64,000 nt of DNA from an uncultured Phycisphaerales bacterium (GTDB lineage: Bacteria > Planctomycetota > Phycisphaerae > Tepidisphaerales > Tepidisphaeraceae). Shown here piece by piece: positions 4,302-23,837 of this stretch. The stretch covers positions 128,359-192,358 of the forward strand of contig CAWBEY010000001.1 of assembly GCA_963788015.1 (NCBI GenBank), read 5' to 3'. Position 1 is the first letter of the stretch; each line of letters opens with the position of its first letter. A program made the position numbers and the translations under genes. The notes beneath the pieces were generated by a model. The model ran no database searches, was not told the DNA's origin, and saw only the letters and a program-made list of their open reading frames with translations.

Positions 4302-4367
4302 CTATGTCATATTGCTGGCGCTGTTCCCTCCGCCAGTCGGCGCCTGAATCCTCGAAAGACAGCCAGT

Positions 4368-5795
4368 ATGCGTCACCCCCGCGACGTCGCCTCCAACCTC
4401 TCTGCCCGCTATGGCGTCGAAGCCCTGGAAGACCGGTGTCTTCTCTCCGTCGCCCCAATCCAACCCAGAATCGCCCACCACGCGGCCCATCGTTCCTCCG
4501 GCCTCTCGCTCGGCGCTCTCCGCAACGCCACCCGCATGAACGGCAGCCAGGTCCGCGCTCAGATCGCCATCAACCCGCGCAACGCCAAAAACGTCGTCAC
4601 CGTTGGCCAGAACAACGCCCACGGCAACACCATGCTCACCGTCTCTTACAGCCTGGATGGCGGCAACTCCTGGCACGCCTACAACATCGGCGGCGCCACC
4701 GACCACTTCAACGGCGGCAGCGGTCGGCCGGATCCCCGCGTCTCCTTTGACGCCTTCGGCAACTGCTACATCTGTTACATGTGCGCTGTCACCCCCAACG
4801 AACTCGACGTCATCACCGGCATCAGCAGCAATGGCGGAAAGTCGTTCCGCTTCCAGAAGGCCACTTCCGGCGTCAACGCCCAAATCGACAACCCGAACAT
4901 GGCCACCGGCGTCGATGCCCGCAACCACGCGCACCAAATGGTCTGGATCTGCTACACCGATTCCAACGACGGCTTCGTCAAAATCGTCTACGCCACCTCC
5001 ACGGGCCTCGGCAGGCTGTCGGGCTTTTCCAAACCCAACACCGTCAGCGGCGAACCGGGCGGCGACTCCAGTGTCGCCGTCGGGCCTAAGGGCCAAGTTG
5101 CTGTCACCTGGGAAGCCCCAATCAACACCTCCGGCCCGGCCACCATTTTCGTCTGCACCGACGCCGACGGCGCCGGCACGGCCAGAGACTTCGGCGCCGA
5201 CATCCTCGCCACCACCACGGCCGTCGGCGACACCCACTACATCCCCGCCCAACCCGACCGCACCATCGATGCCGAACCAAAAGTTGCATTCGACCGCAGC
5301 GGCGGCGCGGCCAGCGGCCGGCTTTACCTCGTCTATGTCGACGAAAATCCCGACGTCCCTTACGACACCGACATCTTCCTCCGCTACTCCACCAATCTCG
5401 GCAACACCTGGACCAAGCCCATCACCGTCAACGACGACAACACCACCAACAGCCAGTTCGTCCCCGCCTTAGCGGTCGATGATAAGACCGGCCAGGTCGG
5501 CGTCTCCTGGCTCGATTGCCGCGATAGCTCCGACAACAAAGGCGCAATGGAATACGCCGCCGTCAGCATCGACCACGGCCGATCGTTTCAGGCCAATCTG
5601 CGCATCAGCAAGGCCGGCTCATTCCAAGGCTGGGCCAACGGCGCTGATGACACCGATTACGGCGACTCCACCGGCCTGGCGTTCTTCAACCACAAGCTCA
5701 TCCCCGCCTGGGCCGACGATTCCAACTCCACCAAAGACAACCCCAACGGCCTGTTCGCCTTCGACGTCTACACCGCCGTCGTCACCACCCGCTGA
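4368..5795 (+). CDS. secreted BNR/Asp-box repeat protein (sialidase-like) with the planctomycete N-terminal 'LEDRCLLS' motif
   Basis: Asp-box repeats SLDGGNSW, SSNGGKSF, STNLGNTW, SIDHGRSF. N-terminus ...GVEALEDRCLLSVAP. The reading frame is intact. Confidence 0.6.
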   Translation: MRHPRDVASNLSARYGVEALEDRCLLSVAPIQPRIAHHAAHRSSGLSLGALRNATRMNGSQVRAQIAINPRNAKNVVTVGQNNAHGNTMLTVSYSLDGGNSWHAYNIGGATDHFNGGSGRPDPRVSFDAFGNCYICYMCAVTPNELDVITGISSNGGKSFRFQKATSGVNAQIDNPNMATGVDARNHAHQMVWICYTDSNDGFVKIVYATSTGLGRLSGFSKPNTVSGEPGGDSSVAVGPKGQVAVTWEAPINTSGPATIFVCTDADGAGTARDFGADILATTTAVGDTHYIPAQPDRTIDAEPKVAFDRSGGAASGRLYLVYVDENPDVPYDTDIFLRYSTNLGNTWTKPITVNDDNTTNSQFVPALAVDDKTGQVGVSWLDCRDSSDNKGAMEYAAVSIDHGRSFQANLRISKAGSFQGWANGADDTDYGDSTGLAFFNHKLIPAWADDSNSTKDNPNGLFAFDVYTAVVTTR

Positions 5796-5808
5796 TCTCT
5801 TCAACAAC

Positions 5809-5845
5809 AAAAAAAGGGACGCCCAACAAGTGAGCGTCCCTTTCG
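5809..5845. terminator. bidirectional Rho-independent terminator between convergent genes
   Basis: A7 run, then GGGACGC-loop-GCGTCCC, then TTTCG. It reads as a terminator on both strands. Confidence 0.5.
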
Positions 5846-5871
5846 TGCTTCAGAAAGCTTCATTCAGCATC

Positions 5872-6450
5872 TTATGGATTGCTGGTCATCGGCGGAGCGG
5901 AAGCGCCAAGCGGCTGATATCCAAACTTTTGTCCGCCAACCGATGCCTCCGCCATCAACCCGCCTCGAGCGTGGGTGAAGATGGCAACGCCGTCCGTGTA
6001 CTTGGCATTGGTGGCCACGCCGGATTTCAGCGCCACGGCCGACGCCTGGGCCGCAAACGTGAACTTGCCGCTCTTGAATCGATCAAGGGCCGCCTTGTCC
6101 TGGAAGGCAATCACCTCCGTATATTCCTGGCCGCCGGCCTGCAGGCCGATCGTCGCCTGGGTCAACTCGGTGTACCCCACCTTCTGACCCTGCTCAAACA
6201 CCTCCCCATGCCCATAAGCACCGCCCACGCCCAGGCCGCCCTTGCCCACGGTCGGGAATACGGCATACCCATAGGCATTGCTCAGGAACGAACCAAAGCC
6301 CGGATCCTCCTGCTTCAAGGCCGACAATGACGCTTGCACATTGTCCGCAAGCTTCATCTTCGCTTCATCGCTCTTGGGCGGCGATTGGCACCCTGTAAAA
6401 GTAAACCCCACACCAGCCAACATCACGACGCTCAACAATAACTTTCGCAT
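5872..6450 (-). CDS. lipoprotein with a SYLF/Ysc84-like (DUF500) domain
   Basis: Signal plus lipobox MRKLLLSVVMLAGVGFTFTGC. Gly-rich SYLF-like core (GKGGLGVGGAYGHGEV...GLQAGGQEY). RBS GGAGGACGTATG. Confidence 0.55.
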   Translation of the reverse strand: MRKLLLSVVMLAGVGFTFTGCQSPPKSDEAKMKLADNVQASLSALKQEDPGFGSFLSNAYGYAVFPTVGKGGLGVGGAYGHGEVFEQGQKVGYTELTQATIGLQAGGQEYTEVIAFQDKAALDRFKSGKFTFAAQASAVALKSGVATNAKYTDGVAIFTHARGGLMAEASVGGQKFGYQPLGASAPPMTSNP

Positions 6451-6600
6451 ACGTCCTCCGAGATAAGGGAGACAAAGACAACGACTTAACTGACCAAGGC
6501 GAACAATAGAGGTTAGGCCGCCGACCTGTCAATGTGGAATATTTCGAGTGCCTGAGAAAGACCGCCGGTGGACTTGCTGGCAACAGTACATCGCCCCGTC

Positions 6601-7387
6601 TCAGGTGGCGTTTGTTTGCGCGGTTAGCAACTTGGACGCCCAGGCTGCATCCGATTCCTCCAGCCCCGCCGCCGGCAACCCCTCATAACGCACCGCGCGA
6701 TCGTATCGTCCGCGCGAATATGCCGTGTCGAAGACCTCACCCAGATCAACGGAGATATCCGGATCGGGCCATCGCAATGGAACCGGGACCACCGGCAAGG
6801 GATCGCGCAGCCCCCATCCATACACATCAACCGTTTCCCGGCGGTCTGCGCGGCTGATAAGCACCGTGTAATGGGTTTGCGGCGCCTTCAACGCCATCCG
6901 CCGACCCCCAATCAGCAGGTCGATCTCCACGAGATTGACTGGCCTGCCGAGAACCGCCTGCCGCCGGGCCATGTACTCCCAATAGCCATCCCCGATCTTG
7001 TTGGAGGGCGACAGCACTTCGATCACGCTCACCACTGAAAGTTCCGGCAAACGCCGAACCTCCAACCAAACGTCGCGCCACCTCGGCCATGGCCGGCGCG
7101 GAGACCGTGATGGGTTCAAGCGTGGCGACGCCACTTTGTGTGGCTGGATGATGCGAATCGGCAGGTCGTGCTGCATCATGAACGATGCTGACATCCGGAT
7201 AAATCCGCCGCGTCTCCGCATCGTCATAGTTCACTAACCGCAGTTGCTCATCGATCCGGGCATCATATTGATTCGGCAATCGTTCCAGGATGGCGTCCCG
7301 CAGGTAGGTGATGAAGGACCGGTGAAAATCCGGCCACAACCCCGGATGCTCGATGTAGGGGTCCATGCCGGGAAATGGGGATCGCAT
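6601..7387 (-). CDS. DUF4058 family protein (Uma2/PD-(D/E)xK-like), frameshift near 7085
   Basis: N-terminus MRSPFPGMDPYIEHPGLWPDFHRSF...PDVSIVH. C-terminal part ...DVWLEVRRLPELSVVSVIEVLSPSNK...VNLVEIDLLIGG lies in another frame. Confidence 0.55.
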
Positions 7388-7496
7388 GGCAGGATTATAG
7401 CGTCCTGCGAACTTCCCCGCCCCCTCGGATGCCCAAGGCTCCGTTCCGCGTGGTTGTCGCTGACGGACCGCAATCGCGGTTCAGTCGCCACCAGCC

Positions 7497-10129
7497 CTAC
7501 GCATTCCCCACCAACTCCCCCTCCACCACCTCCGCGCCTTTGGAGAAGATGAAGTCGTGCCGGTGCGGTTCCACGTCGATCCGAATCGTATCCCCTTCAG
7601 CATATTCACCCTTCAGGATCCGTGAGGCCACCGGGTTCTCAATCCGCTGCTGGATCACCCGTTTCAGCGGCCGAGCGCCATACGTCGGATCATACCCTTC
7701 CTCCGACAACAGCTTCTTCGCCTCCTCGCTCACGCTCATCTTCAGGTTCCGGCTCGCCAGACGCTTCGACAAATGCTGAAGCTGCACATCCACAATCCGC
7801 GTGGTCTGCTCGCGCGTCAGCGGATGAAACACGATGATCTCATCGATCCGATTCAAAAATTCCGGCCGGAAATACTGCTTCAGCATCTCCTTCACCGCCG
7901 CCTCCACTTCCCATTCCTGCGCCTCCTGACCATTCAGCTTCTGAATCTCCGACGATCCAATGTTGCTGGTCATCACGATCACGCTGTTCTTAAAATCCAC
8001 CGTCCGCCCCTGCCCATCCGTCAGCCGCCCATCGTCCAGCACCTGCAGCAACACGTTAAAAACATCCCGATGCGCCTTCTCCACTTCATCAAACAAAATC
8101 ACCGAATACGGCTTCCGTCGCACCGCCTCCGTCAGCCGCCCGCCTTCTTCATACCCCACATACCCCGGCGGCGCCCCGATCAGCCGCGCCACCGAATGCT
8201 GCTCCATAAACTCGCTCATGTCGATCCGCACCATCGCGTTCTCATCATCAAACAAAAACTCCGCCAGCGCCTTGCACAGCTCCGTCTTCCCCACGCCCGT
8301 CGGCCCAAGAAACATAAACGACCCAATCGGCCGGTTCGGATCTCCCAGCCCCGCCCGGTTCCGCCGCACCGCATCCGACACCGCCCGCACCGCCTCGTCC
8401 TGCCCGATCACCCGATGCCCCAATCGCTCTTCCATCTTCATCAGCTTCTCGCGCTCCCCCTCCAGCATCCGGCTCACCGGAATCGCCCGTCCATCGCGAC
8501 ACCACCTCTGCAATTTCATCCGGCGTCACTTCCTCCTTCACCAGCGCCTCCCCATCGTTGGCCAGTTCGTGCAGCTTTTCGTTGGCCTCCTCCAGCCGCC
8601 GATTCAGCTCGCGCATCTCACCATATTGAATCCGCGCCGCCACTTCCCAATTCCCATTGCCGCTGCGCCTGCTCCAGTTCCACCTGCTTGGCATCAATCT
8701 GCTCCTGAAGCTGCTTCATCGCCCGCATCGCCCCCACCTCATTCTCCCACCGCGCTGTCAGTTGCGTGTTCTTCTCCTGAAGCTCCGCCAACTCCCGCTC
8801 GGCCTTCGCAAGCTGCTGCTTCGACGCCGGGTCCTTCTCCAGCCGCAGCGCCTCGGTCTCAATTTGAAGCTGCATCATCCGCCGCCGAATCTCATCCAGC
8901 TCGGCCGGCATCGAATCATTCTCAATCCGCAGCCGCGACGCCGCCTCATCAATCAAATCAATCGCCTTGTCCGGCAGGAATCGATCCTGAATATACCGGC
9001 TCGACAACACCGCCGCCGCCACGATCGCGCTGTCGGTAATGCGCACCCCATGGTGCGTCTCATACCGCTGCTTCAGCCCGCGCAAAATCGCAATCGTGTC
9101 TTCCACGCTCGGCTCCCCCACCACAATCGGCTGAAACCGCCGCTCCAGCGCCGCATCCTTCTCGATGTACTTCCGATATTCATCCAGCGTCGTAGCGCCG
9201 ATGGTCCGAAGTTCCCCACGCGCCAGCGCCGGCTTCAGCAGATTCCCGGCATCCATCGACCCCTCCGCCTTCCCGGCCCCAACCACCGTGTGCAACTCAT
9301 CAATAAACAGAATCACCCGCCCCTCGCTCTGCGTCACTTCCTTAATCACCGCCTTCAGCCGGTCCTCAAATTCCCCGCGAAACTTGGCCCCCGCCACCAG
9401 CGCCCCCATGTCCAGCGCGATAATCCGCTTGTTCTGCAAGCCCCGCCGGCACGTCGCCATTCACCATCCGAATCGCCAGCCCCTCCACGATCGCCGTCTT
9501 CCCCACGCCCGGCTCGCCGATCAGCACCGGATTGTTCTTGGTCCGCCGCGACAACACCTGCATCGTCCGCCGAATCTCCTCATCCCGCCCAATCACCGGA
9601 TCGAGCTTCCCCAGCCGCGCCATCTCCACCAGATCCCGGCCATACCGCATCCAGCGCCTGATACTTCTCCTCCGGGTTCTGGTCCGTCACCCGCTGCCCG
9701 CCCCGCACATCCTTCAACGCGTTCAGAATCGCATCATGCGTCACCGCGTTCAACGACAAAAGCTCCTTGCGCCTCGCTCTTCACCTGCGCCAGCGCCAGC
9801 AAAAGATGCTCCGTCGAAATGTATTCATCCTTCAGCCGGTCCGCTTCCTTCTGCGCATCACTCAAAACATCCTGCGTCGATCGCCCCATCCCAAGCTGCG
9901 TCCCCGTCGCCTTGGGCAACCGGTCCATCTCCCCGTTCACCATCTGCCCAATCCGCCCCGCATTCGCCCCCAGCTTCTGCAGAATCGGCGCAACCACCCC
10001 TTCGGTTTCGCCTAGCAGCGCCGCCAGCAGATGCAGCGGCCGCAACTCCGCATGGTCATGCTTCTGCGCCAACTCCTGAGCCCGCTGAATCGCCTCCTGA
10101 GCCTTCACTGTTAATTTATCGAGTCTCAT
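7497..10129 (-). CDS. clpB: ATP-dependent chaperone ClpB, broken by at least four frameshifts
   Basis: N-terminus [38 protein letters not shown]1 [13 protein letters not shown]...[17 protein letters not shown], ...[24 protein letters not shown]2 ...VIGQDEAV...[12 protein letters not shown]. It is spread over ORFs 9734-10219, 9366-9650, 8618-9460 and 7497-8519. Confidence 0.9.
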
Positions 10130-10412
10130 AGTCGTCTTACCTTCTGCACTTAAAAGAATCGTTGTGTAATCTACCTCATCTATACGCAACAAACGCGCCG
10201 AAGATCGCGCCCAGGGCAAGCTGCGAAGCTCGCAACACCAGTGCAGCGCAGCAGTTAAAACTATATTGACGCCAGAGCGACATCCTCACCGCCTTCCCCC
10301 CGCGCCTGCAGGATTGGCAGCCACCGCACGCCCTTCGCCAAATGTTCACCACCATCGCGTAGCATCGGCCCCTCTTCCCCCCCCCCGCCCATCCTCGCTA
10401 ACCTTGCACCCC

Positions 10413-11820
10413 ATGAGCGACGCCGCATATCAGCAATGCATCCACCCCGATTGCGGCGCCACCTACAGCGTCGACGAAGTCCGCACCGCCTGCGAAAAAT
10501 GCGGCTCCCTCATCGACATCCGCTACGACTGGTCACGCCTCCCCGTCCCCAAAAGCCTCAGCTTTTTCGAGCACCGCTGGAACACCAAGGGCACCGAAAC
10601 CGCCGGCCGCCTCGACTTCTCCGGCGTCTGGCGCTTCCGCGAACTCCTCCCCTTCTACCACACCGAAGACGACATGGTCTCCATCGGCGAAGGCCGAACA
10701 AGCATGCAACAGGCCGACCTCCTCGGCCGGCAGATCGGCATGCGGCCCGGCAAGCTGATGCTTCAGTACGAAGGCCTCAACCCCAGCGGCAGCTTCAAGG
10801 ACAACGGCATGACCGCCGCCTTCACCCATGCCCGCATGGTCAAGGCCAAACGCGTCGCCTGCGCCTCCACCGGCAACACCAGCGCCAGCCTCGCCATGTT
10901 CGCCTCCCTCGCCGAAATGCAGGGCATCGTCTTCATCGGCACCGGCAAAATCTCCCTCGGCAAACTCTCCCAGGCCCTCGACTACGGCGCACTCACGCTC
11001 CAGATCAAAGGCGACTTCGACGCCTGCCTCCGCCGCATCCGCCAAATCTCGGCCGACACCGACCTGGGCATCTACCTCATGAACAGCGTCAACCCCTTCC
11101 GCCTCGAAGGCCAGAAAAGCATCATGTATCGCATCCTCGAGGCCCTCGACTGGCAAAGTCCCCGACTGGGTCATCGTCCCCGGCGGCAACCTCGGCAACT
11201 GCTCCGCATTCGGCAAGGCCTTCATGGAGCTCAAGGAACTGGGCCTCATCCGCAAAATCCCCCGCCTCGCCGTCATCAACGCCTCCGGCGCCAACACCCT
11301 CAACGAGCTCTACTCCCGCCAGAATCTCCGCTGGAACGACGGCCGCGTCGATATGAAAGCCATCACCGGCCTCTACGCCGCCATGGACGAAAGCAACTAC
11401 TACCCCCACACCGTCGCCAGCGCCATCGAGATCTCCCGCCCCGTCAACCTCCCCAAGGCCCTCCGCGCCCTGCATTTCATGAGCGGCGTCGTCCGCGAAG
11501 TCACCGACGAAGAAATCCTCGAACACCGGGCCATGGTCGCCCGCTTCGGCTTCGGCTGCGAGCCCGCCAGCGCCGCCAGCGTCGCCGGCCTGCGCAACTT
11601 CTCGAAGAACAAGTCATCTCCCCGCGACGAAACCGTCGCCTGCATCCTCACCGGCCACGAGCTCAAAGACCCCAACGTCACGGTAAAATACCACACCGGC
11701 GTAGACATAAAAGCCGTCCAGGACCAGGCCCCCCGCGTCGAACCGCATGGCCGGTATGTCAACCAGCCCATCGCCGTCGCCGACAAACTCGACGACATCA
11801 TCCGCGTCATCACCAGCTGA
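10413..11820 (+). CDS. thrC: threonine synthase, frameshift near 11154
   Basis: Zn-ribbon N-terminus [35 protein letters not shown] lysine motif [10 protein letters not shown]. After 'EALDW' the frame shifts into ...[23 protein letters not shown].... Confidence 0.85.
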
Positions 11821-12191
11821 CCACGTGACGCATTGCCACCGCCGCAACTTCCGTCACGCGGGCCTTTGCTCGCGCATTCCCCAATGATCAATTGTCCAAC
11901 AGCTTGTTGAACAATCTCCTTGGGGCGAGCATTTCGTAGATGGCATGTTGGTTGTCGGGTTAGTCGGTTAAGGTATACTCGCCGTGCCTTCGGTTTGGCG
12001 CAAGGGCTTTGGAGACTACAATCCCGAAGCTCTAGATAGTTCCTTTTTTAGTCGAGAGTGCTGCCGTTGGCAGACGTCGCTGACAACCAGCGAAAAAGGT
12101 TTACCCCTAATGGCCTTCCATTTTCCGCGATTGGTGGAGCTATCTAGAATAAAATCCCCCGTTCACCTGCCAGCGACAGGACGAGTTCCAA

Positions 12192-13405
12192 ATGGAAAAT
12201 AAAGTGTTCGCAGAATCCGATAGCGGAATTGAGATTCCTTTGGAGGAAATCACTTCCGGAGGAACCGGCAGCGGCCTTGAAGCTGAACGGTCTACTGAAG
12301 ATGGCAACATATTGGCACCATTCGACCCCGCCAAAATTGATGTCATTACGCAAGCGCGTACCGTGGATCTATTACTACGCGCCTAAAGGAAGGCGAACTT
12401 GATCTGTCACCGGATTTCCAACGCCGGAGCAACCTCTGGGGTGATTCTACAAAAAGTGCCCTTATCGAATCGATACTTCTTCGAATCCCGATCCCATCCC
12501 TATATGTTGCCGAGGACGAAGGCGGCGATTACACAGTGGTCGATGGGCTCCAGAGACTCTGCGCAATTGCTCATTTCGTAAATGTCGAAGCACTCAATAA
12601 GGCGGTTAAACGGGAGCTAAACCCACTGCGACTCAGAGAGCTCCAGTCATTTTTTGAATTCAATGGAAAGGCGTTCGGCGAACTTCCGCGACCTCTGCAA
12701 CGCCGAATTAATGAGACAGAACTCACATTGCATATCATTAGAGCCGGAACTCCGCCGGCGGTAAAATTCAACATATTTTCCCGAATCAACCGTGGCGGCC
12801 TCCCACTTACTGCCCAAGAAATTCGCAACGCGATCTATGTGGGCGATTGGAAAAACCATGTTCGTTCGCTCGCAGAAAGTTCAGAATTCAAAACCGCGAC
12901 GCAAGGAAAAATTAAGGGCGAACGGATGGAAGATTTGGAACTCATTCTACGGTTTGTGGCTAGCTACGCACAATCCGATGGCAAGACACGACCTCCGGAT
13001 CAAAACCTCGATGATTTCTTAAACGATTTTGTCGAAAAAGAGTGCACCGGGTGGTCCGTTGAACGATGGCGATCTGTGATCTCCGCATTTAAGAGGGCGA
13101 TGGAATTCGCACCGAAGGTATTTGGAGCAATGGCATTCAGAAAGTATTCTGCCCCAGGTGAATACCGGCGACCGATCAACCGAGGATTGTTTGAAACGGA
13201 ATCCGTGACACTGGCAAGACGCACACCCGAGGAACTTGTTAAACTGTCAGGCCGTTCGCAGCGTGTGATCGAGGCGTTTGGACGCGAATTTAAGAGCGAC
13301 AAGAACTTCCAAGATGCTCTTCTCTATGCCACAGGGAAGGGAGCGGCAAGTAACAAGCGGCTCGATGTAATGGAACAAATTTTTGCACAGGTGCTGAATG
13401 ATTGA
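12192..13405 (+). CDS. DUF262 (ParB/Srx-like NTPase-nuclease superfamily) protein; a single missing base near 12378 splits it into two ORFs
   Basis: After frame correction it reads ...FDPAKIDVITQARTVDLLLRRLKEGELDLSPDFQRRSNLWGDSTKSALIESILLRIPIPSLYVAEDEGGDYTVVDGLQRLCAI..., which carries the DUF262 'FQR...W' and 'DGxQRL' motifs. It sits in a low-GC island. Confidence 0.7.
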
Positions 13406-14542
13406 GCACATTCATCTCCAGAACTTCAAGGCGAGCCGCGACGTGGCCATAAGGATCGCCCCATTAACCGTCTTAGCGGGTTTGAATAGTTCTGGTAAGA
13501 GTTCCATTCTTCAGGCGATTGCCCTTCTTAGACAAAGCTATGGAATAGCTGCTCACGCAAACAGCCTACTTCTCGGTGGCGATCTTATCCAATTGGGCCA
13601 TGGCCGAGATGTGCTCAGCGAAGGCGCAGATGTTGCAGATGATGTGATTATCTTCACCATGCGCGACGGCGGGACCGAGTATCGTTGGAGTTGCCCAACT
13701 GCGGCAGACGCTACCGAATTGGAATTCCGCGATAAGCCTGATCAGCTGCCCGCCTTCATCCGCTCGTCGAATTTTCAATTCCTTCAAGCGGGCCCGCGTA
13801 ACCCCCTCGCCTCTCTATCCGCAAGCACCACAGCATGCTCGTGCGAGTGGATTTCTAGGACCCCGCGGCGAATATACGGCGGATTATTTGGCGATGAATG
13901 CGGACAAACTTGCCTTCGAAACAAGATTTGCCGCATGTGCGGGCTCATTGACTCCTGTTGATCCGGAACTACTCAGCATGGTTTCCCCGACCAAAAAGCT
14001 TATTGACCAGGTTGCCGGATGGTTGCAATACTTGAGTCCCGGTGCACGGCTCAGAGCGGAAAGAGTAACAGGAACAGACAATGTCATGTTGCAGTACAAC
14101 TTTGTTGGACGCGCACGCGAACTTGCTACCAACCAATACAGACCTACTAATGTCGGATTCGGCTTGACATATAGCCTTCCCATTGTAGTTGCTTGTCTGG
14201 CGGCCACCGAAGGATCATTGTTAATGCTTGAAAATCCGGAGGCGCATCTTCACCCCCAGGGACAGGTCGCATTAGGTGAATTATTGGCCTTAGCCAGCGC
14301 AGATGCGAGTCCAAATCATCGTGGAGACTCATAGTGACCACCTTCTTAACGGTCTTCGGTTGTCGGTAAAGAGCGGGCGGTTGAATCCTGCGGAGGTTGC
14401 TCTGCATTTCTTTGGTCGTCCGACTGAAACTGGCGAGTCGTCGGTGCAATCACCATCGATGCTCCCCGGCGGGCGCCTTTCAAATTGGCCGGAAGGATTT
14501 TTTGACCAGTGGGACAACAGCTTAGATGCACTAATTGATTAG
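13398..14542 (+). CDS. ABC/SMC-like AAA ATPase with a DUF3696-like C-terminus, two frameshifts. Overlaps the upstream gene by ATGATTGA (translational coupling).
   Basis: Walker A MIEHIHLQNFKASRDVAIRIAPLTVLAGLNSSGKSSILQAI. Walker B/D-loop LLMLENPEAHLHPQGQ. H-loop IIVETHSDHLLNGLRL. Tail ...WPEGFFDQWDNSLDALID. Confidence 0.7.
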
Positions 14543-14876
14543 GAAGCTATGCGCTCGCCTGTCATCTACATTAATGAATTGTCGTTTGCATTCGACGGTT
14601 TTCCAGCTCGAGGAGATCCGGCCTCATGTTGAGAGCGCTTTTGCTGCCATTCACGCTGCCGTTCGCATCCGCCCAAAGACAATATTGAAACTCTCACAAC
14701 CTCTTGGAAGCCTTGCGCTCGGCAATGGACAGTTCACGCTTGCTATGATATTTCCAGGCAAGAACAACGAGTTAAGCAGTTTAAAGCGCCAGTTCTGGAC
14801 CGTGCGCCATGCAATTCATTGGCAGGAGCACTCGACTCAGAAATCCGTTATGACAATCAAATTCCCATTGGGATGA
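14535..14876 (+). CDS. hypothetical protein (TTG start overlapping the ATPase stop); no recognisable domain
   Basis: 113-aa ORF in the low-GC island. Its start TTGATTAG overlaps the upstream stop. Confidence 0.2.
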   Translation: MIRKLCARLSSTLMNCRLHSTVFQLEEIRPHVESAFAAIHAAVRIRPKTILKLSQPLGSLALGNGQFTLAMIFPGKNNELSSLKRQFWTVRHAIHWQEHSTQKSVMTIKFPLG

Positions 14877-15354
14877 GCTGGGCTGACCATGATGCCTCGT
14901 TTGTGCTCAGTTTCGGCTATTCCGTACCATGGTCAGCTACCGCGATCCAAGCACAACGTCATCAACTTGATCAGCAATGCAATCTCGTCGTTCAAAACGT
15001 AGACGTTAATAATATCGCCGTTCCGGGTCACGCAGAGCACTGGCGTTGGCGATTGGAAGAATATGGCAAGGAACCGGCGAGTTCCTCGCTATTATATCGA
15101 GGAAACCAGTTCGTGATCAGAATGCATCTGAATGACCACGATCCACCACATCTGCATATATACCCGCATTCTAACGACACTAACGAGTGCCTCGCCAAGA
15201 TTCGCATTGACAACGGCGATCTTCTCGAAGGCAAGCTGTCTTCCGCTATGGCAGAGAGATTTCCGAATTGATCGCCTCGAATAGACAAGTACTATCAGAA
15301 GGCTGGGACCGATGTAAGCACGGTCAGCTCCCATACGCAATTGAGGAACAATAG
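14819..15354 (+). CDS. ORF with a C-terminal DUF4160-like domain (start uncertain; frameshift near 15268)
   Basis: ...LLYRGNQFVIRMHLNDHDPPHLHIYPHSNDTNECLAKIRIDNGDLLEGKL matches the DUF4160 core ('NDHxPPHxH'). The C-terminal continuation LIASNRQVLSEGWDRCKHGQL lies in the +2 frame. Confidence 0.35.
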
Positions 15355-15446
15355 GAAGTATCCCGAGATGCTACACTTTCACCACTTGTCATCATCCGAC
15401 TACGCGGGTACGAAAGCGATTGTCGCTCACTGTGCCAGCATGTCCA

Positions 15447-15692
15447 TCATCGATGCCGGTTCACCCTAACCCCCTCCCGATGCGTCCCAAAATCAAACGC
15501 CATATCCCCAAAATCCAGCGGCGCATCCGCCCGATGATGGTTCGTGCATAAAAGCGCCAAATTCCCCAGCGCATCCTCCCCGCCCCGGCTCAGCCAAACA
15601 ATATGATGCGCCTCGCAAATCGAATCCGCATAGACCGCCCGCGGATCCCACAGACAAAGCTGGCACTTCCAATCCCGCGTCAGGAAGCGCAA
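15447..15692 (-). CDS. small HNH endonuclease (TTG start)
   Basis: CQLC...EAHHIVWLSRGGEDALGNLALLCTNHHR is a complete C-x2-C / HH / N / C-x2-HH HNH motif set within about 81 aa. Confidence 0.5.
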   Translation of the reverse strand: MRFLTRDWKCQLCLWDPRAVYADSICEAHHIVWLSRGGEDALGNLALLCTNHHRADAPLDFGDMAFDFGTHREGVRVNRHR

Positions 15693-16001
15693 GGAAACGC
15701 AGCAGCGTTGTCACGTACTCGCGACCGCAGCGCAGCGAAGTCCTGTAGCACTCCGGCCCCGCGCAGCGGGGCGACGCCCAAACCTAAACGATCGAGAAAG
15801 GAAGCCCGCCCCGCAACCGCGGCCTAGTCATGGAATCGCGAACACTCCTTCAAATCCCGTCAATGTAATCGACCAAGAAGCCATGCGCCTGCGCTTTCGC
15901 CAGGATGTCATGAGAAAGGCAATCCCATTGTGAGGCCCCACAATCTACCCCTCCACGAAGCTCTCGATTCCGCGTCTTACCTGTCCAGGACAAGACATCG
16001 T

Positions 16002-16793
16002 CTATCCGCGGGTGAGGGGGCGCCGCCGCCGCAGGGTGATCAGGGCGCCGACGGCCATTAAACCCATGCTTGCGGGTTCGGGGACGGGAGAGACGGAAAT
16101 GGAGTTGGTGCTGGTGAGGTTGAAGTTGTCGAACTCGGCGCCCCACGTTCCGCCGCTGGGACCGTTCAGATAGGTAAAGAGGCCAAAGCGAGTCGGGGTG
16201 GCGCCAGAGAAGTCGGGGATAGCTGGGCCGGTGTCGTTGACGATAGGAACGAAATTGCCCGAATTGAAGGTCCCGTTGAGCGTCTTGGTTTGCCAGACGT
16301 TGGTGCCGACGACGCTATCGGCGCTGGAGTGGTAGTAATGGCCATTCTGCTCCATGAGCAATGCGACGCCATCAATTTCGTCGCCGGGATCGGTGGCGGG
16401 ATCAGCGTGGTAATCAAAGGTCAAAGTGAAGTTGCCGCTGAGGGGGTCGGTGGTGGCGAAAAATGGATCGAAATTGGCGGCCTCTACTTCACCGCCGTCG
16501 TGCCGGAAATGAAGGTCGGAGGCCATGGCGCCCGGATTGCCGCCGGAGACGATTGGAGTGAACTGATGGGTGGAGGTGGCACCAGGCGCCTGCTGGGTGA
16601 CGGAAGTCCAGGTGCTGAAGTTGCCTTCAGATAGGATCGTGCCCGCGCTGGCAGTCTGGAAGGCGGTGATTGCGTCAGCGCACCACCAACAAGGCACAGG
16701 CGGTGCCTGAATTTCGGTCCGGACATAGTTTTCTCCTCCAGCGATTTCGAAGAACCTCTCGCAGGACTTTTGCGGCCTGGCGAGCACATCCAT
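16002..16793 (-). CDS. PEP-CTERM sorting-domain protein (N-terminus and start uncertain)
   Basis: C-terminus ...SVSPVPEPASMGLMAVGALITLRRRRPLTRG is a PEP motif, then a TM helix, then an Arg cluster. Confidence 0.6.
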   Translation of the reverse strand: MDVLARPQKSCERFFEIAGGENYVRTEIQAPPVPCWWCADAITAFQTASAGTILSEGNFSTWTSVTQQAPGATSTHQFTPIVSGGNPGAMASDLHFRHDGGEVEAANFDPFFATTDPLSGNFTLTFDYHADPATDPGDEIDGVALLMEQNGHYYHSSADSVVGTNVWQTKTLNGTFNSGNFVPIVNDTGPAIPDFSGATPTRFGLFTYLNGPSGGTWGAEFDNFNLTSTNSISVSPVPEPASMGLMAVGALITLRRRRPLTRG

Positions 16794-17170
16794 TGGATCA
16801 GTTCAGCCTCTCCAAATGCGTCCCAATGACTTAAAAGGCTCGAGTGCCCCGCGCGTCGCCGAACGAACCCATCCATTCATGGAGAATAGTAGCGCCCGTC
16901 CGATAATGCAAGGGAATCACAAGAAATTTCAGCAATATTCTTGGACGCGCCAGATGTGGTCTAAAAGCAAGCAGGATCGGCGTTGACTTACAAAGTGTTC
17001 CAATCCAGCCGCGCGTCAACTTCTCAACGTTTCAACCGCCAACCGCCAAGCAGAGCCAGCAAAGCCACTTCTCCCCCTAAACCAAAATGAAAGTAAACTT
17101 TCTAATTGACTCGCCCTTCCACTCCTGATAGGCTAATGTTAGCTTCCGTTACAGAAGCTCCGGCCAGCCA

Positions 17171-17200
17171 AAAAGGAGGGAACAAACCCCCTCCCCAAAG
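17171..17200 (-). terminator. Rho-independent terminator on the minus strand
   Basis: On the minus strand, GGAGGG-GTTTGTT-CCCTCC followed by TTTTT. Confidence 0.4.
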
Positions 17201-17240
17201 CCTGCCGCAGTGTTCTTTCACAAGTGGATAGCCCTAGCAG

Positions 17241-17345
17241 ATTCGAAAATCGAACCTTCAAAAGCGGTAGCTTTCCGCAGTAATCGAACCTTCAAAAGCG
17301 GTAGCTTTCCGCAGATTCGAAATCGAATCTTCAAAAGCTCCAACC
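17241..17345. repeat. tandem direct repeat, about 2.7 copies of a 32-34 bp unit (atcgaaccttcaaaagcggtagctttccgcag)
   Basis: Bases 17249-17280 and 17283-17314 are identical. A third, degenerate copy follows. Each unit contains the small hairpin AAAGC-ggta-GCTTT. Confidence 0.7.
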
Positions 17346-17886
17346 CCGGATGCACATCCGGGGCTCACTCCAACTCCCCCGTTTCGTCATTCCCTCATTT
17401 TCATTGCGAGTGGCACGGGCGCCCCGCGCCCCGCCCGTTTCCGCAAGCACCATAACAAAACAAACCCAAACCCCCCATCACCGACCGCCCAGTCTCCTCC
17501 CCGACTCCACAACAAATCCTCTCTTCCTCCGTGCCTCGGTGACTCCGTGGTGAAAGAATTCGACCCTGTCGAAGCGGGGAGATTCCGGGGAGAAAGGGGG
17601 GAGATTTCACGTCGAAAAGAGGGAGCAACGGGGGAGAAAAGAGGGAGATTCCGGGGGCGGTTTGGGGGCGGTTCTTTCCAGCGTTTTTGCCCTAACCCCT
17701 TGTCAATCCTCAATCCCCTTCCCCCAACTCAAATTGAGCCTTCAAAAAAACAACGCAAATGACACGAACCGGGACATTGGCAATGGCTCACGAGCCAACA
17801 TCCTTCACCATCCCTCCCTCCTCACCGCCCCCCGGCCAGGCACGCAAAGACCCCCAATCCCGCGTCTGTCAATGCTTTCTCCTCTT

Positions 17887-19351
17887 CTTACTTTCCCCCG
17901 CCCGGGCGGTGGTGGTGCCAGGTGGTGTTGGATTGGTAGAGGTTGGCGATTTGGAGCAGGTGGGCGTCGGTGAAGGGGGGCCGAGGAGTTGGAGGCCGAT
18001 GGGGAGGTTGGGCCGGTGGAGAAGCCGCAGGGGAGGCTGAGGCCGGGGATGCCGGCGATGTTGCAGGTGACGGTGAAGACGTCGCAGAGGTACATCTGCG
18101 AGGGGGTCGTCGGTTTTTTCGCCGAACTTGAAGGCGGGGGTGGGGCTGGTGGGGCAGAGCGATGGCGTCGCAGTGATTGGAAGGCGTTGTCGAAGTCCTG
18201 TTTGATCAGGGCGCGGAGCTTTTGGGCCTGGAGGTAGAAGTTGTCGTCGTAGCCGGCGGAGAGGGCGTAGGTGCCGATCATGATGCGGCGTTTGACTTCG
18301 GCGCCGAAGCCTTCGGCGCGGGAGGTGGCGTAGAGGTCGATGATGTCGCTGGCCGGGACTTGGTGCGGTGGCCGAAGTGGACGCCGTCGTAGCGGGCGAG
18401 GTTGGAGGAGGCTTCGCAGGGGGCGATGACGTAATAGGCGGCGATGCCGTACTGGGTGTTGGGGAGGGAGACGTCGACGAGCTCGGCGCCCAGCTCCTGG
18501 TATTTGTGCGATGGCGGCGTGGACGGCGGCTTTGACTTCGGGCGTCGATGCCCTGGCGTGAGTGTATTCTTCGGACGATGCCGATGCGCAGGCCTTTGAG
18601 GGGCTGTCGAGGTCGGCGAGGTAGTCGGGGACGTCGCGGGGGACGCTGGTGGAATCTTTGGGGTCGTGGCCGGCGATGACGTTGAGCAGGAGGGCGGCGT
18701 CTTCGACGGTCAGGCCGAAGGGGCCGATCTGGTCGAGGGAGGAGGCGAAGGCGACGAGGCCGTAGCGGGAGACGCGGCCGTAGGTGGGTTTGAGGCCGAC
18801 GATGCCGCAGAGGGAGGCGGGCTGGCGGATGGAGCCGCCGGTGTCGGAGCCGAGGCCGCCGAAGCACCAGGCGGGCGGCCAGAGCGGCGGCGCTGCCGCC
18901 GGAGGAACCGCCGGGGACGCGGGTGGTGTCCCAGGGATTTGTGGTGGGGCCGAAGGCGGAGTTTTCGGTGGAGGAGCCCATGGCGAATTCGTCGAGGTTG
19001 GTCTTGCCGAGGATGACGGCGCCGGCGGCTTCGAGCTTTTGGACGACGGTGGCGTCGTAGGGGGCGTGGAAGTTTTCGAGCATTTTGCGAGGAGCAGGTG
19101 GTGGTGCCGAAGGTGGTGCAGATGTTGTCTTTGAGGGCGATGGGGACGCCGGCGAGAGGGCCGGTGCGAAGGCCGTTGTCAACGTCGCGGGCCTGTTCGA
19201 GGGCGCGGTCGGGGAAGGTGCTGTTGAAGGCGTGAATTTGGGGGTCGAGGTTCTGGATGCGGTCGAGCGATTGGCGGATGAGTTCGACGGCGCTGATTTG
19301 TCTGGAGCGAAGAGCGTCGCGCGCGGCGAGGAGGGTGTCGAAGGCAAGCAT
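17887..19351 (-). CDS. gatA: Glu-tRNA(Gln) amidotransferase subunit A, multiple frameshifts
   Basis: N-terminus [27 protein letters not shown]...[13 protein letters not shown]-terminus ...[30 protein letters not shown], ...[15 protein letters not shown], ...[23 protein letters not shown]. The last needs G7, but the run at 17974-17979 is G6. Confidence 0.85.
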
Positions 19352-19435
19352 GGCGGGGAGGAAGGTACGGAATGGGGGGGGGAAAGTAAAACGAGGGGCG
19401 GTGACTCTGGTGCGGATGGTGTTGGATTTGGTTAT

Positions 19436-19753
19436 TCAGCCGGAGGAATCTTCGTCGGCGCCGATGATTTTGGGGACCTTGAAAAAAGGACCGTCGGTTT
19501 CGGGGGCGTTTTGGAGGACTTTGTCCAGGGGGAGGCTGGGCTCGACGACGTCTTCGCGGAGGACGTTGTGGAGGGGGAGAGCGTGAGCGAGAGGCTCGAC
19601 GCCGGTGGTGTCGATCTGGCTGATTTGATCGACGTAGTGGAGGATGGATTCGAGCTGGTCGGCGAACCTGGCGGTCTGATCTTCGGTGAGGGCGAGCCTC
19701 GCTAATTTAGCGACGTGGCGGACCTGATCGGGGGAGACTTTTTGGTGTGGCAT
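19436..19753 (-). CDS. gatC: Glu-tRNA(Gln) amidotransferase subunit C
   Basis: MPHQKVSPDQVRHVAKLARLALTEDQTARFADQLESILHYVDQISQIDTTGVEPL... Confidence 0.8.
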   Translation of the reverse strand: MPHQKVSPDQVRHVAKLARLALTEDQTARFADQLESILHYVDQISQIDTTGVEPLAHALPLHNVLREDVVEPSLPLDKVLQNAPETDGPFFKVPKIIGADEDSSG

Positions 19754-19932
19754 GATGGGTGTGGCGTTTGTACTGCAAGGGTGGCGAGGGGTAAAGTTGG
19801 AGCGAATGAAAAGATCTGGCGAACAGACTGGAATCTGGAACGAGGGTGGGGGGTCGCTGGGGTAGTCGGGAGAACGGTGCTTTCCTTTTAATGATCGCAG
19901 CACCGCCCCGCCCTGCTCTGTTCCACCGAATA

Positions 19933-21990
19933 TCACTTTACCTGATCCCTCTTAATCCCCCGCACATCCCCCGCCCGCACCGTCACCTTCGCCCCCGTCT
20001 CCACCTCCTCGGCCACCACCGCCGCCTCCTGAATCTCCAGCGACTTCGCATGAATCACCGATCCGTCCGCCGACCGCACTTCATACGCCCCCGCCACCTC
20101 CTTCACATCGCGCAGCACAATGGCCACCACCTGCGCGTTAATGTCGAACGTCTTGGCCCCAAATAAAACCGACGTCACCTTCACCCGCCCATTGGCGATC
20201 TCGCGAATCTCTCCCTCAAAAAAGTCACCGCTCACCAGCAGCACTCCGGTCCGCGCACCGATCCCCGCTCCCACTTCCTCCGTCACCGGCCGAAACAAAA
20301 GCCGCGCCACCTTGTCCTGCCCCAGCAGGATCTCCTTGTCCCGCGCCACGTGAATCGTCGCCCCTTCCATCCCGCCGATCTGCCCGGCAATCACCGATCC
20401 ATCCGTCAACATCACCCCCCGCGCCGCCGACTGCAGCGCCGCCTGGCCAATGCTCAGACTCAATTGATCTAGCGTCATCGTTCCCGGCCCTTCTCCCTCG
20501 CCGCTGGCCAGTGCGACTCCCACAAACGTGGTGTTCAGGAAGCCGACTGTTTCCGCCCCGGCCGAGGTCCATTTCTTCCCGTCCTCCGAATACATCCCCC
20601 GCACTTTGCTCCCTTCCCGCTCCATCTTCAACCAAGCCGGCGACTTCCCCGGCGTCTCGGAATAAACCGCGCCGCCATCCCCCCGGCCAAGGAAAACCAC
20701 CCCCGTCCTGGGCGATACCCCAATCATCAAAAATCGGGCACTGGGCGAAAGCGTGTCGCGAATCATCAACCCCCCGGCCAGCACCGTCTTGTCCTTCGAC
20801 TGCTCCACCGCCCCCACATGCGCCACCAGATGCCAATCTCCGTCGATCCGCTGAAACGCAAACGGAAACGTGTCATTGTCGCCCCACACGTTGCCCCCGT
20901 TGGACGTCAGCGTAATCGCGCCATCCGATCCGCTCACGCTCCCTTTTTTAGAATCCCCGATCACACTCGTCACCCATCCCGGCGGCAGCTTGCCGGCCGC
21001 GTTTCCAAAAATCCTCACCGCCACCGGCTCCGTGCTCGTTACCACCCCCGCCGCGTTGGCGGCCCGGGCAACTACAAGATATTCCCCCGCCGTCGGACCT
21101 TTCCAAATCACACGAAACGGCCGGGCCGTCGCCATGCCGATCAGCGTTTTCCCCGCGTAATACTCCACGCGGTTGGCCGAAAACGGCGGCTCCCCCACCA
21201 CCGCCTCCAGCGCAATACTCTCGGGGCTGACCAGCTCCTGATGATTCTCCAACCCCACCAGCGCAATCCGCGGCGCGGCATCCCCGGCCGGCGGATAAAG
21301 CCTGCTGGCAGGCACCACCTCGCGCTTCTGGCTCTTGCTCTCCCACTCCAGCCGCGCCGTCGCCATGCTCATCAAATCGTGATACTCCATCCGCACGTCA
21401 TAGCGCTGCCCGGCCTTTAGCTCCATCGTCCCCTTCTGAAAAAAAGGCGCAGTGTCCTGCCACCGGTCAATCAACTGCTTGCCTCCCACCCACAGCCGCA
21501 AACCGTCGTCGCACGTGGTGTGAAACGTGTAGGCCTCCGAATAGCGCGGCTCGACCTGCCCCGTCCACCGCGCCGAAAAATCATCCGGCACGGCCGGATC
21601 CGGCGATCCCAGCCCCCACTGAAAATCAACCCCACCGTCGTACCGCATCACGAGCGCCTTCTTCACGTCCTTGAATTCCTTGTCCGCGAAATACTCACCT
21701 TTCAGCCCGTGGGCGAAATTGGGGCGCTCTTTTCGAACCGGCGTCGCATTGGCCGCGTCACTCGAAGCGGCCGGGACGAGCGTCAACTCCGCCACCTTCT
21801 CCAAATCCACGGCCGCCCAAGTTCCACCCGTGGGCTCGATGCTGATCTTGCCAGGCTCGAATCGCACGATCCCCCGCACGGTCTTGCCGTCCGTCATCTT
21901 CAAAGCAACCAACGGCCTGTTGGTATCGCGTGCGGTCGCTTCCGCTGCGCAGGCTCGCCCGCACAAGCCGATCAAGGCAATCGCCCCCAT
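19933..21990 (-). CDS. secreted PA14-domain protein
   Basis: Signal peptide MGAIALIGLCGRACAAEA. PA14-like GLKGEYFADKEFKDV...FSARWTGQVEPRYSEAYTFHTTCDDGLRLWVGGKQLIDRW. The frame is intact over about 2 kb. Confidence 0.6.
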   Translation of the reverse strand: MGAIALIGLCGRACAAEATARDTNRPLVALKMTDGKTVRGIVRFEPGKISIEPTGGTWAAVDLEKVAELTLVPAASSDAANATPVRKERPNFAHGLKGEYFADKEFKDVKKALVMRYDGGVDFQWGLGSPDPAVPDDFSARWTGQVEPRYSEAYTFHTTCDDGLRLWVGGKQLIDRWQDTAPFFQKGTMELKAGQRYDVRMEYHDLMSMATARLEWESKSQKREVVPASRLYPPAGDAAPRIALVGLENHQELVSPESIALEAVVGEPPFSANRVEYYAGKTLIGMATARPFRVIWKGPTAGEYLVVARAANAAGVVTSTEPVAVRIFGNAAGKLPPGWVTSVIGDSKKGSVSGSDGAITLTSNGGNVWGDNDTFPFAFQRIDGDWHLVAHVGAVEQSKDKTVLAGGLMIRDTLSPSARFLMIGVSPRTGVVFLGRGDGGAVYSETPGKSPAWLKMEREGSKVRGMYSEDGKKWTSAGAETVGFLNTTFVGVALASGEGEGPGTMTLDQLSLSIGQAALQSAARGVMLTDGSVIAGQIGGMEGATIHVARDKEILLGQDKVARLLFRPVTEEVGAGIGARTGVLLVSGDFFEGEIREIANGRVKVTSVLFGAKTFDINAQVVAIVLRDVKEVAGAYEVRSADGSVIHAKSLEIQEAAVVAEEVETGAKVTVRAGDVRGIKRDQVK

Positions 21991-22039
21991 GAGAAGTTGT
22001 GCAGGTCGAGACAGTATCAACTTTCGCCTTCGCGGCGCT

Positions 22040-23170
22040 TTAGAGCGCGGCCGTGTAAATCTCCAGCAAATCTGCTTGCCCCACCGGCCTGGGATTAAAC
22101 CCGGCAGTCCACTGCGTCGCCGCCATCGCCGCCAATTCCGCAAGGTTCTCCGCCTTCACGCCCAGCTCCCGCAGGCGGCCAGGAAGCCGCCCCGCCGCCA
22201 GCATCGCCTCCACCTTCGCCGCCAAATCCTCAGCTTTGGGCATCAGGTCGCTGTACGGATTCCCATTCACACTCGCATTAAACCGAATCACGTGCGGCAG
22301 CATCAGCCCCACCGCCAGCCCATGCACCAGGCCAAACTTCGCCGTCAGCGGATTGGCGCACGCGTGGGCCGCCCCCAGCATGGAGTTCTCGATCGCCGCC
22401 CCGGCAAAATGCGCCCCCACCAGCATATTCCGCCGCGTATTGTCATCCGCATGCGCCGTCACCGCCAGCTCATAAGCACTTGAAAGCAGTTCCCAAGCCT
22501 GCCGCGAAAACCCGCGTGACACCTCGTTCCGGCGCGTACTCCCGGCCGTTTCCACCGCATGCGCCACCGCATCAATCCCCGTCGCCGCCATCACCTTCTG
22601 CGGCTGCGTCGCCGTCAGATCCGGATCCAAAACCGCCAGCCGCGGCAGCGCCTTCGAATCTCCGCACGCCATCTTCTGATGCGTCTCCGGATCGGAAATC
22701 AGCGCAAACGATTGCGCCTCACTTCCCGTCCCCGTCGTAGTCGGAATCGCGATCAGCGGCAGCATCGGCTTGGTAGCCTTGGCGATCCCCTGATAGTCCT
22801 GCATGCGCCCGCCATTGGTCAGCAGAAAGTTAATCCCCTTGGCGCAGTCCATCGAGCTGCCACCGCCCAGCCCAATGATAAAGTCAGGATTGAATGGCCG
22901 CGTTGCAATCACACCCCGCCCCACGTGAATCGTCGTCGGGTTCTCCTCCACCTTATCAAACAGCTGCGCCACCAGCCCGGCCTTGTAGATCGACCGCATC
23001 GCCCGCTCCACATGCCCGGCCTCCACAATGCCCGGATCCGAAACCAGCAGAATGCGCGAAGCGCCCTCCCCCTTGGCAATTGCCCCAATATTCGCAAGTG
23101 CCCCCGGAGCAAACACCACGCGAACACGCGAGCCGGGAAGGGAAGTTGGGGTTAGGGAGGGCAGCAGCAT
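22040..23170 (-). CDS. iron-containing (group III) alcohol dehydrogenase
   Basis: GLGGGSSMDCAKG motif. Fe-ADH-like similarity runs through the whole protein. Confidence 0.8.
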   Translation of the reverse strand: MLLPSLTPTSLPGSRVRVVFAPGALANIGAIAKGEGASRILLVSDPGIVEAGHVERAMRSIYKAGLVAQLFDKVEENPTTIHVGRGVIATRPFNPDFIIGLGGGSSMDCAKGINFLLTNGGRMQDYQGIAKATKPMLPLIAIPTTTGTGSEAQSFALISDPETHQKMACGDSKALPRLAVLDPDLTATQPQKVMAATGIDAVAHAVETAGSTRRNEVSRGFSRQAWELLSSAYELAVTAHADDNTRRNMLVGAHFAGAAIENSMLGAAHACANPLTAKFGLVHGLAVGLMLPHVIRFNASVNGNPYSDLMPKAEDLAAKVEAMLAAGRLPGRLRELGVKAENLAELAAMAATQWTAGFNPRPVGQADLLEIYTAAL

Positions 23171-23178
23171 GTAGTCGA

Positions 23179-23571: not shown

Positions 23572-23837
23572 TCCGGGTTCTCCTTTGGAACCTCGTCAAG
23601 CTCGTCAAGTTCCTCCAGCCATTCCGATCGAATCTCATGTATAATGGCCTCCAAATCGACATTTTCCGGAAATTTTCCCTTGTAGATATCACGCAAGTCC
23701 ACGAGCTCCTTCTCCTCTGGGGGTAGCGGTGGCGCCATTCCGTTTCGCACGTTCAGGTGCTCTATGAGCCTGCGCTGATCTTCAACACTCAGTTGGGTGG
23801 CGAGGTGTTCTATTTCATCCAAGGTGTTTCGAGTCAT
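23568..23837 (-). CDS. putative antitoxin (addiction-module component)
   Basis: MTRNTLDEIEHLATQLSVEDQRRLIEHL... A small acidic protein directly upstream of vapC. Confidence 0.45.
   Translation of the reverse strand: MTRNTLDEIEHLATQLSVEDQRRLIEHLNVRNGMAPPLPPEEKELVDLRDIYKGKFPENVDLEAIIHEIRSEWLEELDELDEVPKENPE

Follow-up and report, generated by a model that had tools for sequence, protein, structure and literature searches.

A low-GC block at the 3' flank of thrC in a Tepidisphaerales contig as a probable horizontally acquired Menshen defence operon

This study concerns the low-GC (guanine-plus-cytosine) block that follows thrC, the gene of threonine synthase, in a 64-kb stretch of contig CAWBEY010000001.1 from an uncultured Tepidisphaeraceae planctomycete (64,000 nucleotides, hereafter the window, whose positions are used throughout). 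We propose that this block is a complete three-gene Menshen anti-phage defence operon, nsnABC, gained horizontally at the thrC 3' flank, a reading to which we give a probability of about 85%. The evidence that carries it was observed directly, namely gene order, full-length homology, conservation of motifs, foreign composition, and absence of these genes from the thrC loci of relatives. With this reading, five "hypothetical/DUF" open reading frames (ORFs) resolve into one named defence system, and a false cargo gene, the HNH endonuclease remnant downstream, is removed. The operon is an unremarkable case of a known system and leaves the knowledge of Menshen or of genomic islands unchanged. From a poorly studied order of soil planctomycetes, it contributes a Menshen with a DUF4160 effector and offers a clean example of a defence operon keeping a foreign synonymous-site signature in a host with a very strong mutational bias.

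The nsnABC operon and related systems

The block consists of a leader of ~370 bp and a single operon, nsnA-nsnB-nsnC (Table 1), in which the nsnB start overlaps the nsnA stop by 8 nt and nsnC begins 7 nt after the nsnB stop. The nsnA product matched the PADLOC NsnA profile with E = 4.4e-115, its residues 19-403 lying on profile positions 14-384 of 385, as well as Pfam PF03235 (GmrSD_N/DUF262, E = 8e-23), and aligned over its full length with five homologues (65-74% identity). The motifs expected of DUF262 (QR...W, DGxQR, and FxxxN) are all present, the sequences kept being FQRRSNLW, VDGLQRL (DGLQR), and FNIFSRINRGG (FSRINRGG); FQRRSNLW is one residue longer than the QRxxxW of PMC12065111 and has an identical length in all five close homologues. 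For NsnB, the PADLOC NsnB profile was matched over residues 1-379 (E = 1.7e-107), together with Pfam AAA_15 (1.4e-22), AAA_21 (5.9e-21), and DUF3696 (6.9e-14), and its motifs agree with PMC12065111 (Walker A GLNSSGKS, Walker B variant LLMLEN, GxG as NVGFG, and His motif ETHSDH).

The third gene is split by frameshifts in the assembled sequence, where the ORFs 14,535-14,876 and 14,819-15,271 are its pieces. In tblastn with the NsnC proteins of the related loci L067, L070, L136, and L137, residues 1-264 were covered over 14,549-15,348. The reconstructed protein matched the PADLOC NsnC profile over residues 5-173 (E = 2.1e-13), while its C terminus matched Pfam DUF4160 (E = 8.6e-6) with a conserved HDHxPPHxH motif. 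An inactive-PIN-like fold of the N-terminal domain is predicted from one line of support, the profile similarity to NsnC. An earlier note on this DNA had listed an unknown ORF and a DUF4160-like ORF as separate genes; by tblastn and PADLOC, they are the single gene nsnC. The DUF262/ATPase pair that it had described as cargo is there, but its membership in a single known system had gone unrecognized.

The closest operons found (L067, L070, L135, L136, and L137) have an identical three-gene layout with a DUF4160 NsnC, and all three window proteins align end to end with them, with the family motifs intact. An acidic peptide before DUF262, LEE[LI]TSxGxGSGLEAE (NsnA residues ~16-35, positions 12,237-12,296), is also conserved in these five loci. 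In L135, a Burkholderiales metagenome-assembled genome (MAG), the annotated NsnC (12,338-13,131 of that locus) has 175 aa and no N-terminal domain, and ~265 bp after nsnB are unassigned; this nsnC may be truncated or miscalled.

Table 1. Features of the thrC 3' flank in the window
Feature	Coordinates	Strand	Description
thrC (threonine synthase)	10413..11820	+	left flank host gene; full length, one frameshift; GC 0.637, GC3 0.88, GC3 skew -0.69
Leader/intergenic	11821..12191	+	GC 0.528; low-GC part from ~11,860
nsnA	12192..13405	+	~404 aa; ParB-like DUF262 (GmrSD_N) and C-terminal DNA-binding-type domain; predicted sensor
nsnB	13398..14542	+	~380 aa; ABC-type ATPase (AAA_15/AAA_21) and C-terminal DUF3696; predicted transducer
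nsnC	14549..15354	+	~268 aa; Menshen NsnC-type N-terminal domain and C-terminal DUF4160 effector domain
Spacer	15355..15446	.	between convergent nsnC and HNH remnant; GC climbing to host level
HNH endonuclease remnant	15447..15692	-	GC 0.585; outside low-GC block

Menshen is the subject of Millman et al. 2022, as cited in PMC12065111. In that latter study, Li et al. 2025 describe NsnA as a ParB-DUF262 protein with a DNA-binding domain, NsnB as an ABC ATPase with an EN variant of Walker B, a GxG motif, and a DUF3696 helix, and NsnC as an inactive-PIN-like domain joined to one of 15 effector families, DUF4160 included. The window copy resembles this system in the order nsnA-nsnB-nsnC with overlapping or abutting genes, in the ParB-DUF262 and C-terminal domains of NsnA, in the ABC ATPase of NsnB with its EN Walker-B variant, GxG, and DUF3696 tail, and in an NsnC combining the family-type N-terminal domain with a variable effector, here one of the listed families. 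The tested system, that of Solibacillus silvestris, protects against T2, T4, T6, and Fado and is the sole experimental evidence cited in PMC12065111; its effector is PB-BECR1 RNase-like, unlike the DUF4160 of the window copy, and no DUF4160-type Menshen has been experimentally tested as far as that paper states. The window copy is also unlike in carrying six frameshifts (probably errors) and in having no neighboring restriction-modification (R-M) or BREX genes, which adjoin 28% of Menshen loci (PMC12065111). Planctomycetota were already among the phyla with Menshen in the same study.

By analogy with the family as described in the literature, the window nsnABC would have anti-phage activity and act as a sensor, a transducer, and an effector. 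NsnA, with its ParB/DUF262 NTPase and DNA-binding C-terminal domain, may sense phage DNA, either as such or modified. NsnB, through its ABC-type ATPase and DUF3696 tail, would couple ATP hydrolysis to activation and relay the signal. In NsnC, the inactive-PIN-like N-terminal domain would recognize the target, and the DUF4160 toxin-type domain could be a toxic or nucleolytic effector that probably attacks nucleic acid.

GmrSD/BrxU, SspE, and PD-T4-2 have the N-terminal DUF262 (GmrSD_N) NTPase/sensor domain in common with NsnA. Unlike these, the window DUF262 protein has no fused DUF1524/HNH nuclease, and it is accompanied by an ABC ATPase with DUF3696 and by an NsnC-type protein. We rejected membership in PD-T4-2 or GmrSD, the PADLOC PD-T4-2_A profile giving only E = 1.5e-35 and 121 bits versus 383 bits for NsnA, with different partner genes. 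A Septu-like arrangement (ATPase plus HNH) was likewise discarded, as the HNH gene is convergent and truncated and its relatives never stand beside Menshen. Unlike the DUF4160/DUF2442 toxin-antitoxin pairs, the window DUF4160 is fused to the NsnC N-terminal domain, with no DUF2442 gene after it.

The leader holds two weak sigma-70-like sites (11,952-11,979 and 11,995-12,022) and a 13-nt inverted repeat (12,031-12,043/12,136-12,148). The promoter and terminator scan found promoter-like sites no more often than expected by chance (5 versus 3.5 +/- 2.0 in the shuffled expectation), a terminator count likewise not above the shuffled expectation, and no terminator-like site in the spacer 15,355-15,446. 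The leader has no homology to the upstream regions of the related Menshen loci.

Extent and composition of the low-GC block

In 100-bp steps, GC is 0.60-0.66 along the clpB and thrC stretch up to the thrC stop at 11,820 and drops to 0.46-0.55 from ~11,860, within ~60 bp of that stop. It remains at ~0.50 throughout a block spanning ~11,860-15,380, with higher flanks, recovers to at least 0.55 from ~15,380, just past the true nsnC stop at 15,354, and is ~0.60 from 15,500. The interval 11,880-15,450 has a GC of 0.505 versus 0.605 for the whole window and is its lowest 3.5-kb segment (z = -8.6, the other segments having a mean of 0.612 and a standard deviation of 0.012); the block is also a tetranucleotide outlier. 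These values bear out the abrupt drop after thrC that the earlier note had described. Its figures of 48% versus 66% overstated the contrast, which is ~10-11 points (50.5% versus ~61%), or 13 points versus thrC alone, and the recovery that it placed at 15,450-15,700 lies at the right edge of ~15,380.

The difference extends to synonymous sites. GC at third codon positions (GC3) is 0.48-0.51 in the Menshen genes (nsnA having GC 0.493 and GC3 0.48) versus 0.73-0.88 in thrC, clpB, gatA, and the PEP-CTERM gene downstream, and the strand skew at these positions (GC3 skew) is -0.08 to -0.16 versus absolute values of 0.51-0.78 in host genes. Because both measures differ from those of host genes, the synonymous sites of nsnABC bear neither host signature. 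Hence, the deviation that the earlier note had proposed to look for in sliding GC, tetranucleotides, and codon usage is present in GC, tetranucleotides, GC3, and GC3 skew alike.

The HNH gene that had been counted as cargo falls outside this block and has a host-like composition. It is a remnant keeping only residues 72-147 of a 152-aa family: its alignment to the family member P0121 runs over 15,668-15,453 at 86% identity with a 4-residue gap, and no homology to the N-terminal 71 residues was found at the locus. The gap is a 4-codon in-frame deletion (12 nt) that removes "VHRT," including the last His of the HNH motif. Its GC3 skew is +0.62 on its coding strand, the plus strand being C-rich as in thrC and clpB. 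Relatives of the gene occur in unrelated contexts with no Menshen nearby.

We considered it unlikely, without dismissing it, that the foreign region is larger (~11.86-17.87 kb) and comprises Menshen, the HNH remnant, the PEP-CTERM gene, and a repeat-bearing stretch behind it, with Menshen as the newest layer. Such an extent would accommodate the missing dapB and the non-syntenic genes after thrC (see below), the 16- to 20-kb interval, which is also a tetranucleotide outlier, and the strand skew, which flips sign at ~16.0, 16.8, 17.9, and 19.8 kb. It would also fit the stretch 16,794-17,868, which has a GC of 0.54, tandem repeats, and neither a Pfam match for its ORFs nor an Rfam match, as well as the relatives of the HNH gene, which lie beside transposase and antitoxin genes. 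However, the HNH remnant (0.585) and the PEP-CTERM gene (0.605) have host-like GC and a host-like strong GC3 skew, and, if acquired, they would be old residents or come from close relatives. Moreover, gatA is a core gene, and only 11,860-15,380 lacks the host signature.

The stretch 16,794-17,868, which is gene-poor and occupies 1.07 kb between the PEP-CTERM gene and gatA, contains a 34-bp tandem repeat at 17,237-17,338 (2.7 copies) and a 22-bp repeat at 17,577-17,656 (3.6 copies).

Frame changes and other counterarguments

Several points weigh against a complete, horizontally gained nsnABC. Six frameshifts interrupt the three operon genes and, if real, would leave the system dead. The AlphaFold2 model of the closest full-length NsnC homologue (P0131, 4-sequence alignment) had a mean predicted local distance difference test score (pLDDT) of 37.9 and was unusable for a search for the inactive-PIN fold. 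No true empty site was seen, the closest ThrC being 91% identical and dapB missing from the window. A mobility signature is absent, with no tRNA, recombinase, terminal repeats, or conserved cassette ends, and no close relative of the clade was found on a known plasmid or phage.

The six frame changes are spread over the 3.16 kb of nsnABC, with one in nsnA (~12,374), two in nsnB (~13,791 and ~14,308), and three in nsnC (~14,609, ~14,790, and ~15,254), and each corresponds to a single alignment column lost, with no other damage. Core genes of the window are similarly affected, at 0.7-3 frameshifts per kb: clpB (7,560-10,129, minus strand) has 4 frame changes in 2.57 kb versus Escherichia coli ClpB, gatA (18,018-19,312, minus strand) has 4 in 1.3 kb versus planctomycete GatA, and thrC has 1 in 1.4 kb, an extra C in a C-run near 11,163. 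Because essential genes are equally hit and each shift costs one alignment column, we infer that the six frameshifts of nsnABC are probably indel errors of long-read metagenome assembly. With indel errors at 1-3 per kb in this assembly, ORF-based calls of genes and pseudogenes across the window are unsafe.

It is improbable, in our view, that nsnABC is instead a decaying, non-functional Menshen remnant with six real mutations. Such a view could draw on the spread of the six frame changes across nsnA, nsnB, and nsnC, on the location of most of them outside long homopolymers, on the true degradation of the adjoining HNH gene (5' truncation and 12-nt deletion), and on the sporadic pseudogenization of Menshen parts reported in the literature (PMC12065111). 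Nevertheless, the essential genes clpB, gatA, and thrC have an equal or higher frameshift density, and beyond the six shifts the operon shows no premature stop and no deletion, with all motifs conserved. Moreover, the contig, of 800 kb, is from a MAG collection in which other long contigs show likewise split genes.

Horizontal origin and history of the thrC locus

Horizontal acquisition of nsnABC is well supported by GC, GC3, GC3 skew, and tetranucleotides, by absence in relatives, by cross-phylum NsnA identity, and by low-GC inserts elsewhere. The earlier note had reasoned that relatives with the same genes at the same locus and with the same GC would point to an ancestral compositional oddity; Menshen genes were found near thrC in 0 of 125 relatives' loci, and the GC change after thrC is -0.131 in the window versus -0.004 +/- 0.024 in 65 relatives. 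Homologues of NsnA with 62-75% identity occur in Burkholderiales, Thiobacillus, Nitrosospira, Aromatoleum, and Solibacter, and extensive horizontal transfer of Menshen, a family mixed across phyla, was inferred in PMC12065111. In five other, unrelated hosts, the clade always has a lower GC (by 3-13 points) and a lower GC3 than the neighboring genes, and the Burkholderiales MAG L135 carries an equally bare 3.1-kb low-GC Menshen insert. The acquisition had been described in the earlier note as recent: composition and distribution uphold the horizontal part, but "recent" holds only in a relative sense and the arrival is undatable from GC alone, because the Menshen clade is under-ameliorated in every host examined. 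This pattern suggests a high turnover of the cassette.

A native, long-resident operon whose low GC is intrinsic to its genes appears very unlikely. The clade has a GC of 0.47-0.58 in all six hosts, for a host GC of 0.52-0.69, which could reflect constraint; yet the deficit in the window is concentrated at synonymous third positions and the operon is without the host strand skew, so that protein-level selection is no explanation, and the genes are absent beside thrC in the 125 relatives while the family is mixed across phyla. An assembly chimera, with DNA from a different member of the community joined into the long-read MAG contig, is hardly credible, even for a metagenome-assembled contig rich in indel errors with a sharp composition change at both edges of the block, given that the foreign piece is exactly one operon and its leader between intact intergenic junctions in an 800-kb contig, that its indel density equals that of the flanks, and that the same clean cassette-only pattern occurs in the independent MAG L135.

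The organism belongs to Tepidisphaerales, and the window thrC has its best ThrC match in L001, with 91% protein identity over residues 1-467. In 51 of 87 relatives' loci, from Pirellulaceae to the closest Tepidisphaerales, dapB lies <400 bp after thrC, and 9 further loci of the 87 have 0.5- to 1.9-kb inserts between the two genes. The products of these inserts (L006, L009, L017/L115, L049, L088, L090, L100, and L121) are a Uma2 putative restriction endonuclease, a HicB-like antitoxin, a GNAT acetyltransferase, DUF433, a SUKH/SMI1 immunity-type protein, and OmdA. The clade therefore has, at the thrC 3' flank, a slot in which accessory genes recur. No dapB was found in the 64-kb window, and its neighbors clpB, the PEP-CTERM gene, and gatA are not syntenic beside thrC in relatives. 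Because the thrC-dapB pair is broken and dapB is missing, the block sits at a synteny breakpoint rather than as a clean insertion between conserved neighbors. The empty site imagined in the earlier note, thrC directly followed by the PEP-CTERM gene, is not ancestral, since relatives have thrC followed by dapB. No same-species genome was found, exact-protein look-ups with the NsnA fragment, the PEP-CTERM protein, and the HNH ORF giving nothing on record. The PEP-CTERM protein had no relative in a scan of metagenomes, and ThrC scans found nothing above 91% (genomes) or 83% (metagenomes) identity.

Like classical genomic or defence islands, the block differs from its host in composition, carries accessory defence genes, is missing in relatives, and occupies a slot whose content varies among these relatives; unlike such islands, it comprises 3.5 kb and one operon, with no tRNA, integrase, transposase, or flanking repeats. 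The lack of a tRNA, an integrase, and att-like repeats had already been remarked in the earlier note, and our searches, that for flanking repeats included, confirmed it: there is no tRNA in the 64-kb window, only short chance-level matches as flanking direct or inverted repeats of the block, and no RNA family in 11-20 kb at E <= 1. The block has no cassette ends in common with the related Menshen loci, and tblastn with their transposases, integrase fragment, Y1 transposases, WYL, TIR, and methylase gave no match in the window. No relative of the Menshen clade was found in IMG/VR, known plasmids reached at most 41.5% identity to the clade, and phages gave distant, partial matches only; distant DUF262-DUF3696 pairs lie on 60 plasmids, 31 of them conjugative.

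As the simplest guess, nsnABC entered by illegitimate or flank-homology recombination linked to rearrangement. A more speculative and rather doubtful proposal is that the Menshen clade spreads into particular intergenic slots, here the thrC-dapB spacer, as a bare cassette that consists of the leader and the three genes and encodes no recombinase. If true, this would imply an unrecognized insertion route supplied by the host or by phage.

In two of the five related loci, L067 (11,966-12,703) and L070 (5,966-6,412), a Y1 (IS200/RAYT-type) transposase gene follows nsnC within 1-2 kb. The L067 locus also has a DDE transposase, an integrase fragment, a ParE toxin-antitoxin pair, and a TIR gene. Neither the Y1 transposase nor any of these companions occurs in the remaining three loci or in the window.

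The host strand skew was itself of note. On the coding strands, GC3 skew is ~-0.7 in thrC and gatA and +0.68 in clpB, and the plus strand is C-rich regardless of gene orientation over 600-12,000 and 18,000-29,000. In the window, as in three Illumina-based Tepidisphaeraceae MAGs (L001, L002, and L008), the bulk 1-kb skew reaches absolute values of 0.3-0.48, yet it is close to zero elsewhere in the order; we found no literature on such a skew. The thrC genes of the window and of L001 have opposite third-base preferences despite their 91% protein identity. Such a third-position strand skew could be usable as a built-in clock for dating arrivals.

Within the window, the skew over ~16,000-19,800 (+0.15 to +0.49) is opposite in sign to that on both sides (-0.2 to -0.4), and it changes sign again at ~16.8 and ~17.9 kb. 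Such a pattern suggests that one or more small inversions occurred right beside the island. A search for inverted repeats at the skew-flip boundaries (~16.0 and ~19.8 kb) gave nothing convincing. A 23-nt inverted repeat, 87% complementary, brackets gatA (17,881-17,903/19,374-19,396).

Further downstream, a low-GC patch with no recognizable gene lies at ~25,200-25,800. Another small low-GC patch (~0.52) at 23,179-23,891 on the minus strand carries a PIN-domain (VapC-like) toxin gene (Pfam PIN, 1.3e-9), and the 107-aa ORF upstream, which overlaps this gene by 4 nt, is probably its antitoxin.

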